Shown here piece after piece: positions 1,167 to 6,272 of a stretch of DNA of 6,659 nt (its first letter is position 1; the number at the start of each line of letters is the position of its first letter). Both the position numbers and the translations under genes were made by a program. The notes beneath the pieces were generated by a model. That model was not told the DNA's origin. It did not search any database and was given only the letters and a program-made list of their open reading frames with translations. Source of the DNA: a virus; the IMG/VR virus record IMGVR_UViG_3300029584_000073, positions 1 to 6,659 of that record; one strand, written 5' to 3'.

Positions 1167-1451
1167 ATGGACATTCTTTTGCAATTACAAAGTGCCAGGA
1201 AAAAGAAAACATTTTACGTTTGTGTTGAAAACTTGCCCGTTAACACTCTCTTGCGTGCTCTTCTTGAGCTAAATTTTTCGTCGGAGACACTTCGTGCCTT
1301 GCCTCTCATAGAGGAAAAACTTAATGATGATTTTTATGTTGCAGGCCTTATTGATAAATCATTTTGTAACCGAAAGGTTACATTTACTGTATCCTACGAC
1401 GATTTTCATCGTCGAGCTTGTGGACTGGGTGAAACATCCAGCATTGACTAA
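1167..1451 (+). CDS. Hypothetical protein, 94 aa (orphan accessory ORF with its own promoter)
   Basis: ATG-initiated ORF preceded by P1 and an A/T-rich leader. By hand count ~44% of its codons end in T, similar to a ~86-codon sample of VP1 (~43%), which supports real coding. I recognise no family motif. Confidence 0.55.
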   Translation: MDILLQLQSARKKKTFYVCVENLPVNTLLRALLELNFSSETLRALPLIEEKLNDDFYVAGLIDKSFCNRKVTFTVSYDDFHRRACGLGETSSID

Positions 1452-1478
1452 CTTGATATATGTAGCACAACTGACACA
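1449..1478 (+). promoter_or_regulatory. Putative (+)-strand replication origin / Rep nick site, phiX174-like core AACTTGATAT
   Basis: TAACTTGATATATGTAGCACAACTGACACA aligns without gaps to the phiX174 30-nt origin CAACTTGATATTAATAACACTATAGACCAC. The match is 19/30, including 10 contiguous identities (1450-1459) that cover the known G/A cleavage position, here G1455/A1456. Confidence 0.5.
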
Positions 1479-1986: not shown

Positions 1987-3384
1987 ATGACAAATATTCT
2001 TTGTGAAAAACCAAAATATATTTTAAATCCTGCTTTTAAAGATGCACTTTTGCAAACTGGAAAATATGTTTATGACGGAAATGCAACTTTTGTACCGGAA
2101 ATGCAACTCGCTGCATGGCGTTGGAACTTTCCGTATGCCCTGTTTTCGCCGAAAAACATTGATTTTCAAAACCTTGTGTCATGGCAAGACAGTTTTTATG
2201 CCATTGACCGCGATAGTGACGCCGTACCGATGTTCCTTGCGATTCCATGTCGTAAATGTAGTCTTTGTCGAAAGAGGAACGCCCGTGATTGGATGTTTCG
2301 AGCTGTTGCAGAAACGCAGTCGTCCCGTTCTGTCCCCTATTTTATTACCCTTACTTACAACCCCATACATCGCCCCGTGGACGGTGTAGATAAAAAACAT
2401 GTACAAGATTTTCTTAAGCGTTTGCGTCAGATTCTTATTAGAGACCATAACTATGATGAGAAAATTCGGTATTTTGCCGCCGCTGAGTATGGTAGCCATA
2501 CGAAATTGCCTCATTATCATCTTATTTTGTGGAATATGCCTATTCATATGTCTGCTATGGATGTTTACCAGGTTGTCCATCAAGCTTGGTCTGAACGAAA
2601 ACGAATTTATAATAAACTTACTCATCGCTTTGATTGGGATTATGTAGGCGAACTTGGATTTGTCTATTGTAAACCTTGTACTCAAGGTGGTATTCAATAT
2701 TGTATGAAATATATGCGTAAAGAAAGTGATGTTCCTAAAGGTTGTAAACCAACCTTTTACTTATCCTCCCGCCGTGGCGGCGGTCTTGGTTATAAATGGT
2801 GTCTTGATCATGTTATGTGGTTCTATCAGAATCCTGATGTTTTGACTGTTGAAATTGTTGACAAGTTCACAGGTGAACGTTTTACTTCTTATATTCCTGC
2901 ATATTTTCGTCGAAAACTTTATCCGACTCCCTCTATGCTTATTCGAAAAGAAATACGTGATACTATTCAGCTTGCTGATTACTTTTTATCACTTCGCGCT
3001 TGTCTTTGGCAGATACATCTTCGTATGCCTGATAAGAAAGTTAATGTAACTCGTAAACATCTTCAGGAAAAGTATCCTTTCTACAATTTTGACACTTGTG
3101 TAGAACGTTTCCCTCGCTTTATTTTTGATAATGCGAAGAATTTTTATGCTATTCATCAGGAAGATAGTCTTATCGTTATGGAACATATTCTTGAACCCCT
3201 TATAGCTATGCTTGAGGCTTACGAATTTGATCTCGAGTATTACAAAATGATGACTTCTGCTAAGCGTGAACATCATGAGTTTATGAGTGAATATATGTCA
3301 ACACAACCTGAGATTGATATAACGTATGTTAAATATAAAACAGATAATGAGAATATTCTTGCTATTTATAAAGAAACTTTGTAA
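1987..3384 (+). CDS. VP4: Microviridae VP4 / gene-A-type HUH rolling-circle replication initiator (465 aa)
   Basis: Motif I is YFITLTY (nt 2338-2358). The HUH motif is LPHYHLILW, with HYH at nt 2512-2520. The two-tyrosine motif III is YCMKYMRKESD (Y238/Y242, nt 2698-2712), close to phiX174 A protein YVAKYVNK. An N-terminal PCRKCSLCRK cysteine cluster lies at nt 2245-2268. Confidence 0.93.
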   Translation: MTNILCEKPKYILNPAFKDALLQTGKYVYDGNATFVPEMQLAAWRWNFPYALFSPKNIDFQNLVSWQDSFYAIDRDSDAVPMFLAIPCRKCSLCRKRNARDWMFRAVAETQSSRSVPYFITLTYNPIHRPVDGVDKKHVQDFLKRLRQILIRDHNYDEKIRYFAAAEYGSHTKLPHYHLILWNMPIHMSAMDVYQVVHQAWSERKRIYNKLTHRFDWDYVGELGFVYCKPCTQGGIQYCMKYMRKESDVPKGCKPTFYLSSRRGGGLGYKWCLDHVMWFYQNPDVLTVEIVDKFTGERFTSYIPAYFRRKLYPTPSMLIRKEIRDTIQLADYFLSLRACLWQIHLRMPDKKVNVTRKHLQEKYPFYNFDTCVERFPRFIFDNAKNFYAIHQEDSLIVMEHILEPLIAMLEAYEFDLEYYKMMTSAKREHHEFMSEYMSTQPEIDITYVKYKTDNENILAIYKETL

Positions 3385-3998: not shown

Positions 3999-6272
3999 AT
4001 GGCAAATATATTTCGTAAAAAAGACGCATATATAGATCGTGTCAATCGGTCTACTTTTGACCTTTCTTTTGTGAATAACCTGACGATGAAGTTCGGCGCT
4101 ATCACTCCGGTGTGCCTGTTACCGGTTTCTTTTGGTGATTCATTTCAGATAAACGCCCGTTTCAATTTGCAATTGCTTCCGACCGTGTTCCCTATACAGA
4201 CACAGTTGTATGTGCGGTTGCATTTTGTTTATGTTCGCACTCGTACTCTTTGGGAAGATTGGATGTCGTTCTTTGGAGGTGATGAAACTGTAACTCCTCC
4301 TTGGATGGATGTTCTTGCTAACGGTAATACTCCTCAACGAAAACAACAGTTTAATTTACCTGATGACTTACAAACTGGTTCTCTTGCGGATTATCTCGGT
4401 GTGCCTACAACGATTACAGGCACTTATGGTTCTACTGTTAATGGAGTATTACACTCGCCTATATATACATCAGAAAAATCGTCTCCGAATTTTGGTCGAG
4501 GTTTTTATACAGCTTTAGCTACGCCAAATACTTCTGATGTATTTACTCTTAATGATTTGATTGCTAAAAAAGGGCTTGGACTTGGCGAACTTTTTGTATA
4601 TCAAAATGAGTCATTCATTGGTATTAATGATTATGGCTTTTCTAAAACCCTTATGGCTTTTGAATATAACTTTCAAAGTAACCAATCAACGCAGTCTCCT
4701 CAGGTTATACTTTCTTGTGCTGGATTTCCTGAATTAATTCAATATTTACAAACTTCTCGTTTGGGTTATATTTTTTCGGAAGATTCCTCTTTGGCTACTG
4801 AAATTGGCAAAATTGATTCTTCGGTTGTTTCTGGCACAGATATTATTTTAACTTTTAAGGCATCTAATGCTATTACTTCTTTTAAGTTCTATCTTGTTAT
4901 AGAGTTTGACGCTCATGACCGGAAACCTCATTCTGACGCTCTAACGTATACCTATATTGACTCGTCAAATTCTGTTTATCCTTATGGTTCAGGTATATAT
5001 GAATCTTTGCGTCAAAAATTCAATTCTATGAATGTTGCTGCTGTTATGTCTTCTAATGAATGGGTTAAACCCGAAGCTGCTAATTGTCCTTTCTATGCTA
5101 CTTCCGGTATGCCTTCTATTCCGCTGTCTGCACTTCCTTTTCGTGCGTATGAAGCTTATTATAATGCATTTGGCCGTGACATTCGTAATAATCCGTTTAT
5201 CGTGGACGGTAAACCGGAATACAATAAGTATGTCCCCTCTGTAAAAGGTGGACCTGATAGTTATAAATATCAATTACATTATGCTAATTGGGAACCTGAC
5301 GCTTATACTACGGCTTTACAGTCTCCACAAGCTGGTATTGCTCCTCTTGTAGGTATTACTTCTCTTGGTGAAGCTACATTCCGTGATGCTGCTGGTACTG
5401 AATACCATGCGCAGCTTGAAACTGCTGAAGACGGTGATACTGTTACTGGTTTTCAGGTTAAATCTTCTAATGCTCCTGCTGATGTTGTTCGGAATCTTAT
5501 AGGTATGGCTACTTCTGGTATATCTATTTCTGATTTCCGGAATGTTAACTCTTTGCAACGTTTCCTTGAAATTCGTATTCGTCAGTCTCCGCGTTATAAG
5601 AATCTTGTTAAGGGTCTCTTTGACGTTAATTTGGATTATGACGAACTCATGATGCCCGAATTCCTTGGTGGTATTTCTGATACTATACCTGTATATAAGG
5701 TAACTCAAACTACACCTACAGAGGGTAATCCTCTTGGTAGTTTTGCTGGTCAAGGTTCCTTGCAGTCCGGTATGCGTCATGTTATTCGTAAATATTGTCC
5801 GGAAGACGGTTATATTCTTGGTGTCATGTCGGTTGTACCTGCTGCGAACTATTCGCAGTTGTTGCCGCCTCATTTTACCCGTATGAACCTTTTGGATTGG
5901 CATTTTCCGCAATTCAATAACATTAGTTATCAGCCTATGCTGTATAAACATCTTTGTCCGTATCAGGCCTATGCTGTTAATCCTCAAAACGTTAATAATG
6001 TATTTGGTTATCAGCGTGCATATTGGGATTTAATTGCATCTTTTGATGAAGTCCATGGTGAATTCCGTGGTTCTATGAGAAATTTCCTTATTAACCGTGT
6101 TTTTGATAAAGCGCCTGAACTTTCTAAGGATTTTTTACTCGTTAATCCTGATCATGTCAATGATGTATTTGCTATGACTTCGGAGAATGGTGATAAGATT
6201 TTGGGTTCTGTTGCATTTGAAATAACTAAAAAGACAACTATACCTCGTAATTCTGTACCTCATATTGAATAA
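3999..6272 (+). CDS. VP1: Microviridae VP1 / F-type major capsid protein (757 aa, unusually long)
   Basis: Conserved microvirus capsid blocks are present: N-terminal FDLSF...GAITPV...LPVSFGDSF, LADYLGVP (D131 at nt 4389), SALPFRAYEAYYNAFGRD (S377 at nt 5127), MPEFLGG and FGYQRAYWD. It is the longest ORF and has strong T3 codon bias. Confidence 0.93.
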   Translation: MANIFRKKDAYIDRVNRSTFDLSFVNNLTMKFGAITPVCLLPVSFGDSFQINARFNLQLLPTVFPIQTQLYVRLHFVYVRTRTLWEDWMSFFGGDETVTPPWMDVLANGNTPQRKQQFNLPDDLQTGSLADYLGVPTTITGTYGSTVNGVLHSPIYTSEKSSPNFGRGFYTALATPNTSDVFTLNDLIAKKGLGLGELFVYQNESFIGINDYGFSKTLMAFEYNFQSNQSTQSPQVILSCAGFPELIQYLQTSRLGYIFSEDSSLATEIGKIDSSVVSGTDIILTFKASNAITSFKFYLVIEFDAHDRKPHSDALTYTYIDSSNSVYPYGSGIYESLRQKFNSMNVAAVMSSNEWVKPEAANCPFYATSGMPSIPLSALPFRAYEAYYNAFGRDIRNNPFIVDGKPEYNKYVPSVKGGPDSYKYQLHYANWEPDAYTTALQSPQAGIAPLVGITSLGEATFRDAAGTEYHAQLETAEDGDTVTGFQVKSSNAPADVVRNLIGMATSGISISDFRNVNSLQRFLEIRIRQSPRYKNLVKGLFDVNLDYDELMMPEFLGGISDTIPVYKVTQTTPTEGNPLGSFAGQGSLQSGMRHVIRKYCPEDGYILGVMSVVPAANYSQLLPPHFTRMNLLDWHFPQFNNISYQPMLYKHLCPYQAYAVNPQNVNNVFGYQRAYWDLIASFDEVHGEFRGSMRNFLINRVFDKAPELSKDFLLVNPDHVNDVFAMTSENGDKILGSVAFEITKKTTIPRNSVPHIE

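Follow-up and report, generated by a model that had tools for sequence, protein, structure and literature searches.

A conserved two-box module near rep as the probable rolling-circle origin of an Alpavirinae-like microvirus and its relatives

Gene layout and the module at the end of ORF94

The window, by which we mean the whole stretch of DNA that was analysed, is a circular microvirus genome of 6560 nt, given as 6659 bases that include a 99-nt terminal redundancy. All of its genes are carried by the + strand: a VP2-like ORF (26–1069), ORF94 (1167–1451, with the stop codon TAA at 1449–1451), a VP4-type rep gene encoding 465 aa (1987–3384), three small ORFs, VP1 (3999–6272, Pfam Phage_F) and ORF103. 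No tRNA or tmRNA gene was found in the window. The first-pass annotation, made from the sequence of the window, had described a single large non-coding region, and this is correct: only 1452–1986 qualifies, with the module described below at its 5' edge. Relatives of the window in GenBank, recovered from the gut of humans and lemurs, are unclassified Microviridae. An Alpavirinae-like affiliation is likely, and so is a Bacteroidales host, given a relative integrated in a Barnesiella metagenome-assembled genome (MAG).

The module (1449–1478, + strand, TAACTTGATATATGTAGCACAACTGACACA) overlaps the stop codon of ORF94, and rep starts 537 nt downstream. It had been reported as an origin-like core outside rep, about 530 nt upstream of it, and both statements hold. 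It is the positional counterpart of the 30-nt ori(+) of phiX174 and is made of three parts. Box 1, the predicted nick box (AACTTGATA, 1450–1458, an exact single copy), is followed by a 10-nt spacer of variable sequence (TATGTAGCAC, 1459–1468), whose first 7 nt are AT-rich (TATGTAG, A/T at 5 of 7 positions). Box 2, the putative Rep-binding box (AACTGACAC, 1469–1477), stands in place of the phiX 3' region TATAGACCA and contains a hexamer resembling the −35 box of sigma-70 promoters (CTGACA/TTGACA).

The phiX174 30-mer quoted in the first-pass annotation proved to be exact; it lies at 4299–4328 of phiX174, inside gene A, and is identical in G4. The ten contiguous identities claimed with this sequence were also found, as an exact copy of AACTTGATAT that is single in the window (1450–1459, + strand). 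At 1449–1458 the + strand reads tAACTTGATA, against CAACTTG/ATA for the phiX nick core, so that the first base is T and not C. From this homology, cleavage is predicted between G1455 and A1456. In phiX174 the nick falls between G4305 and A4306, and the catalytic residues are Tyr343 and Tyr347 (bioRxiv 10.64898/2026.07.25.740675).

How far this resemblance exceeds chance was estimated within the window. Given the actual composition of the window, 0.036 exact copies of the 10-mer would be expected, and 14 of 300 shuffles had one, so that the chance of about 1% proposed earlier was too optimistic. The similarity over the whole 30-mer (19/30) carries no meaning: matches at least as good occurred in 103 of 300 shuffles (34%), and a 20/30 match exists elsewhere in the window on the − strand. 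We therefore kept the ten-base core, which is real, and dropped the 30-mer similarity as evidence. Taken from the window only, the match is weak and marginally unlikely by chance (p ~0.04), hence its significance comes from comparative data.

The enzyme presumed to act on the module is the product of rep. As had been claimed, this protein has a phiX-like two-tyrosine motif, Y238-C-M-K-Y242 (Tyr238 encoded at 2698–2700, Tyr242 at 2710–2712), and it also has an HUH motif of the form HYH (H176–H178, encoded at 2512–2520). In an alignment of graded Rep homologues, H176, Y177, H178, Y238 and Y242 were invariant in 21 Reps, and the HUH and two-tyrosine motifs were kept by Rep in all lineages compared. 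The only Pfam family matched by the Rep of the window was PF23343 (REP_ORF2-G2P); neither PF05840 (Phage_GPA) nor PF01446 (Rep_1) was detected.

ORF94, a putative gene, had no Pfam match, and its column identity (0.55–0.87) is far below that of the module overlapping its end (0.99).

Conservation of the two boxes among relatives

A Rep-based scan of IMG/VR gave 26 close genomes, with 78–97% identity in Rep. The exact 10-mer was present once, on the + strand, in 24 of them, and in the 22 loci where motif and rep follow each other in this order on the linearised contig, it lay 476–566 nt upstream of rep. Conservation of AACTTGATA in position, which the first-pass annotation had put forward as a check, was thus found. 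The two close relatives without the motif are a truncated contig (L026) and a contig that is most likely an assembly chimera (L015). The latter was discarded as an informative absence: tailed-phage lysis and integrase genes are joined to codon 3 of rep. In this contig, segment 1–5426 abuts segment 5427–10675, genes for a tyrosine recombinase, an amidase/lysin and a holin-like protein are present, and the origin region is absent. When the window and its relatives were aligned (25 genomes), 37 of the 40 columns of 1450–1489 were invariant. This is the highest conservation in 1050–2150, and it exceeds that of the adjoining ORF94 (mean column identity 0.55–0.87).

To go further in divergence, 54 more IMG/VR loci were taken, whose Reps were 31–52% identical; they were chosen by protein and not by motif. 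In nearly all of them a two-box module was located on the rep strand, mostly 60–120 nt upstream of rep, with the form (T/A)AACT[T/C]GAT[A/T], a 10-nt gap of which the first ~7 nt are AT-rich, and AAYTGACAC. The strict pattern was found on the + strand in 42 of the 54 loci, never on the − strand, and in none of 1600 shuffled genomes. The remaining 12 loci had recognisable variants of the module in the same place, among them CTTGGTA..AGTGACAC, CTCTCGTCC, CTCTTGATA, ACTAACAC as box 2, and a longer spacer; in L048 a deletion takes out most of box 1. Spacer length was 10 in all Rep-bearing matches of the Alpavirinae-like type, and 11 in L109 and L124. Every module found in Rep-bearing contigs was on the rep strand.

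Only the two boxes reached 90% conservation. The flanks and the sequence of the spacer varied, with 64 distinct 90-mers among 69 sources. The earlier view that a phiX-type core is conserved holds for box 1, and the second conserved box (AAYTGACAC) differs from the 3' part of the phiX origin.

A second copy of AACTTGATA (within gAACTTGATAACGG) was observed on the + strand in the loci L032–L056, some 2.4–2.7 kb upstream of rep (at 1554 in L032 and at 510 in L043). It was rejected as an origin, being inside a coding region, where it is read E-L-D-N-G, and having no box 2. The phiX decamer alone suffices for cleavage of single-stranded DNA; if box 1 alone likewise suffices, this conserved second copy would be a place where termination might occur internally. 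In the window AACTTGATA has no second copy of this kind.

Hairpins and the gokushovirus-like form

Upstream of box 1, a hairpin (CTGGGTG-AAA-CATCCAG, 1425–1441, + strand) lies inside the 3' end of ORF94 and ends 8 nt before the box. Compensatory changes preserve this stem (CTGG/CCAG, CCGG/CCGG, and in L077 GTGG/CCAC) and alter the C-terminal residues of ORF94. More distant relatives have different hairpins, such as ACGATTT..AAATCGT, equally far from box 1, and over the 64 distinct 90-mers the lineage-specific hairpin always ended 5–10 nt 5' of the box. The 1425–1441 hairpin may have a role in the origin. As regards ORF94 itself, its last residues vary (..SSID versus ..SGIV) while the pairing of the DNA hairpin stays.

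Downstream, a second hairpin (CACAACTGA..TCAGcTTGTG, 1465–1493, + strand) includes box 2. It is present only in the clade of the window and in L028, and the case for its being real is weak. The single-stranded fold of 1415–1500 was no more stable than that of shuffled sequences (z = −0.25), therefore the flanking hairpins are not claimed on energy alone. In this fold box 1 lies in an unpaired linker between hairpins 1425–1441 and 1465–1493, and no hairpin of at least 7 bp was found around box 1 in the clade of the window or in the Alpavirinae-like relatives.

A long imperfect hairpin of ~190 nt (1616–1806, + strand) lies between the module and rep, outside the nick module proper. The fold of 1500–1986 reached −89 kcal/mol, versus −55 for shuffles (z = −7.3). 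Compensatory pairs across the clade (1689–1734, AT/GC; 1695–1728, CG/TA; 1696–1727, TA/GC; and 1666–1757) and self-inverted BLAST matches of this region in relatives were observed as well. This hairpin is a candidate for the complementary-strand origin or for a primosome site. The only Rfam match in the window, to mir-1891 at 1674–1750, which arises from this long hairpin, was below threshold (31 bits, for a gathering score of 70) and was set aside as spurious. Further small GC-rich hairpins were noted at 1510–1526, 1552–1568, 1811–1830 and 1906–1920. The segment 1550–1569 (TACGAAGTTCCCAACTTCGG) does not vary within the clade at 17 of its 20 columns, and its score is that of a terminator-like element.

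The two boxes were also searched for as a pattern throughout IMG/VR. Among the matches listed were the Alpavirinae-like genomes described above and at least seven gokushovirus-like genomes of 4.1–4.7 kb. In these seven, which encode Reps of 260–350 aa with YxxxY, box 1 was in the loop of a 9–10-bp hairpin and box 2 came after the stem. At least about 40 matches in large non-microvirus contigs were rejected: they had no Rep, their spacers were variable, and their number fits the chance expectation, itself a back-of-envelope estimate.

In order to avoid ascertainment bias, 80 gokushovirus-like genomes were then taken by Rep alignment and scanned for a hairpin whose stem has 7 bp or more and whose loop carries ..CT[T/C]GA.., followed by TGACA. 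This hairpin-loop module was detected in 46 of the 80 genomes, versus 5 on the − strand and 0 of 80 shuffles. The 46 modules had 41 different stem sequences, which amounts to covariation, and 44 of them were outside long ORFs. Box 2 generalises in these genomes to [C/G/T]TGACA[C/G], and the distance and order of the module relative to rep vary. The same hairpin with its loop recurs in Chlamydia phage Chp2, in the VP3–rep intergenic region (2908–2945). As defined by this rule the element is not universal, since no convincing module was found in phiMH2K and SpV4, and 34 of the 80 genomes were not detected.

The predicted gokushovirus-like origins, that of Chp2 included, share with the window the CTTGAT core and the TGACAC second box. 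They differ in that their nick box is in a hairpin loop, as in the stem-loop origins of CRESS-DNA viruses, whereas in the clade of the window hairpins flank box 1 instead. A nick box in a hairpin loop is the usual arrangement for HUH enzymes.

Altogether, the two-box signal was found upstream of or near rep in microviruses that are only distantly related and number well above 100. That a Rep recognition core might be conserved across very distant Microviridae had been proposed from the window; at the computational level this idea is supported, with the strict module in 42 and variants in 12 of the 54 distant loci, and CTTGAT/TGACAC in the gokushovirus-like sample. One 44-mer of the gokushovirus type matches 207 GenBank microvirus records. 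Among the 30 of these matches listed, an origin was never annotated, the feature being almost always 'none', and the module is likewise unannotated in two GenBank relatives of the window.

Origin reading and its alternatives

These observations lead us to regard 1449–1478 as, with good probability, the viral (+)-strand rolling-circle origin, where the two-tyrosine HUH Rep would cut between G1455 and A1456. This reading is founded on the identity with the phiX core, the strand, which is the one that phiX nicks and packages, the copy number, the positional conservation, the two-box architecture and the motifs of Rep. The gokushovirus-like hairpins, the CTTGATA nick site of Rep_1 plasmids and the unpaired position of box 1 in the fold also speak for it. 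Several points were counted against it: the match is marginal when the window is taken alone; box 2 differs from the phiX 3' domain; the element is not universal as defined; the module is ~500 nt from rep in the clade of the window, versus 60–120 nt in most relatives; Rep belongs to PF23343 and not to PF05840; and box 2 contains the −35-like hexamer, so that it may have a transcriptional role.

By analogy with phiX, initiation would proceed as follows. The 465-aa Rep (HYH and Y238-x-x-x-Y242) would recognise the duplex replicative form via box 2 and the adjacent AT-rich spacer, which would melt easily, and would cut the + strand in box 1 (AACTTG/ATA) between G1455 and A1456. One tyrosine would become joined to the 5' phosphate of A1456, and a host polymerase would extend the 3' OH of G1455. 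After one round, the second tyrosine would cut the regenerated box 1, terminating and reinitiating replication, and the displaced strand would be ligated into a circle. An unpaired box 1 between hairpins would suit the termination cleavage.

The element of the window is evidently homologous to the phiX ori(+). The phiX174/G4 origin, CAACTTG/ATATTAATAACACTATAGACCAC, is cut by the gene A protein and shares with the window ten identical bases across the nick. Common to both are the + strand, the succession of nick box, AT-rich spacer and second box within ~30 nt, a nick without hairpin, and a Rep with HUH and YxxxY motifs. The phiX origin was reportedly dissected into three domains (recognition, spacer and binding sequences) by Baas, Heidekamp, Fluit and van Mansfeld in the 1980s. 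The second box is TATAGACCAC in phiX and AACTGACAC in the window. The phiX 3' binding domain CACTATAGACCAC is absent from the module, which has AAYTGACAC in its place; as only 4 of 9 positions are identical, Rep binding by box 2 is proposed by analogy only. The exact position of the nick, carried over from phiX in the same manner, is likewise a prediction. Two other differences are that the phiX174 origin lies inside gene A, whereas the module is intergenic at the end of ORF94 (which probably does not define the mechanism), and that the phiX initiator is a Phage_GPA protein, whereas the Rep of the window belongs to PF23343. Around the phiX174 origin (4270–4345), a small GCACA..TGTGC hairpin stops 5 nt short of the core on its 5' side, and a second one, CCCC-GAA-GGGG, comes after the 30-mer. 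The likeness to the hairpin-then-box-1 order of Alpavirinae-like genomes may be coincidental, because this region codes for protein A.

The core is found outside Microviridae too. In Rep_1 plasmids of the pC194 type, nicking takes place at a conserved CTTGATA (PMC10378824), and the double-strand origin of the pC194/pUB110 type resembles the module by this core and by its place in a non-coding region upstream of rep (PMC10378824, PMC5703833). The pC194 Rep, however, uses a single catalytic Tyr and a Glu (PMC5703833), it belongs to another family, and the flanks of its origin are not shared with the window.

Among the alternatives, the one that survives best is a role in the transcription of rep, played by the whole module or at least by box 2, as a −35-like box or as an operator to which Rep or a host factor binds; box 1 would then be identical to the phiX core by coincidence. 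We consider it unlikely. In most Alpavirinae-like relatives the module does lie 60–120 nt upstream of rep, a distance fitting this role, and CTGACA/TTGACA is near the sigma-70 −35 consensus; but the distance grows to 476–566 nt in the clade of the window, and in gokushovirus-like genomes both distance and order vary. A sigma-70 promoter scan gave nothing at 1449–1500, and the three terminator-like hairpins returned by the promoter and terminator scan were elsewhere than in the module. Moreover, the likely hosts are Bacteroidota, as the Barnesiella prophage indicates, whose promoters, with the Bacteroides sigma-ABfr consensus, are not known to use TTGACA. Finally, CTTGAT in a hairpin loop is typical of HUH nick sites and not of promoters, and phiX is proven to be nicked at this core.

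The element might otherwise be a cis signal for complementary-strand priming (sso/ssi) or for packaging, which appears improbable to us. It is conserved, strand-specific and non-coding, as such signals would be. Minus-strand origins, however, tend to be extended hairpins whose primary sequence is not conserved, and for priming the window offers a much better candidate in 1616–1806. As to packaging, the phiX origin is also required for it (PMC13386984), and a role of this kind would come on top of that as an origin, as it does in phiX, without replacing it.

Still less probable is a role in lysogeny, with the motif belonging to a dif-like attachment site of XerC/XerD. Such sites are described next to rep in the prophages of Bacteroides microviruses (BMV; Krupovic and Forterre 2011, PMC3091885), and in some relatives the module has the sequence TTGATAATGTAT, similar to the dif core CATAATGTATA. 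The second arm, AAYTGACAC, is nevertheless unlike a XerD arm, and one integrated relative allows the two elements to be told apart. This complete prophage of ~6.26 kb (L178) lies in the MAG of Candidatus Barnesiella excrementavium, between gyrA and a TPR gene on the left and THUMP, aminotransferase and FtsX genes on the right. At its borders stand the copies of a direct repeat of 19 nt that resembles dif, TATAAATTATAGGACAAAT (5110–5128 and 11369–11387), 34 nt after the stop codon of rep, whereas the module is internal (9932–9958), 69 nt upstream of rep. From this layout, the att site is an element distinct from the origin module, although both are short conserved non-coding sites near rep. The prophage is also a clue to the host of this microvirus group.

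Lastly, a chance resemblance in an AT-rich genome, which the 0.036 expected copies of the 10-mer and the 34% of shuffles reaching 19/30 could have suggested, is the least probable reading of all and is already refuted by the comparative data, that is, by the conservation, the strand bias (no strict match on the − strand), the 0 of 1600 shuffles and the fixed architecture across lineages with 31% Rep identity.

Returning to the origin reading, we lean slightly towards a single ancestral two-box signature (CT[T/C]GAT, ~10 nt, TGACA[C/G]) running through much of Microviridae. It would be adjacent to a hairpin in Alpavirinae-like genomes and presented in a loop in gokushovirus-like ones, its second box would have diverged in Bullavirinae, and its nick core would be common to pC194-type plasmids. 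To our knowledge, replication origins have been defined experimentally only in phiX-like microviruses. A literature search for CTTGATA or ACTTGATA as an origin in Microviridae, Alpavirinae or gokushoviruses, with older chlamydiaphage papers outside its scope, returned no description, and origins are not mentioned in Roux 2012, Kirchberger 2020 or Kirchberger 2022. The novel part appears to be the family-wide consensus, with its hairpin-adjacent and loop-presented forms.

Mechanistically an origin of this kind is not surprising, but for most microviruses it turns an annotation gap into a testable 30-nt prediction. Gokushovirus-like and Alpavirinae-like microviruses dominate the ssDNA viromes of the gut and of the environment. 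If the single signature is true, it provides a universal rule for locating the origin, for setting genome start coordinates and for designing nicking assays and replicons in thousands of uncultured microviruses. With it, the nick site becomes testable with a 40-mer and purified Rep, metagenomic genomes can be linearised and annotated consistently, and in temperate lineages the origin can be kept apart from the site of dif-like integration. The signature would also supply the cis element for Rep-dependent replicons or packaging vectors in Bacteroidales, and the CTTGATA link between microvirus origins and pC194-type plasmids bears on the plasmid ancestry of the microvirus Reps.

Two side observations concern the phage and its relatives more generally. 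A free contig of 6689 nt with 78% Rep identity to the window (L176, NZ_QTJV01000041.1, identical to L024) comes from the assembly of a Bacteroidota isolate, Chitinophaga silvisoli K20C18050901, in which it may be either an episomal phage or a contaminant. In VP1, BLAST alignments between the window and members of its clade break consistently at ~4430–5050, which indicates a putative hypervariable capsid insertion loop.
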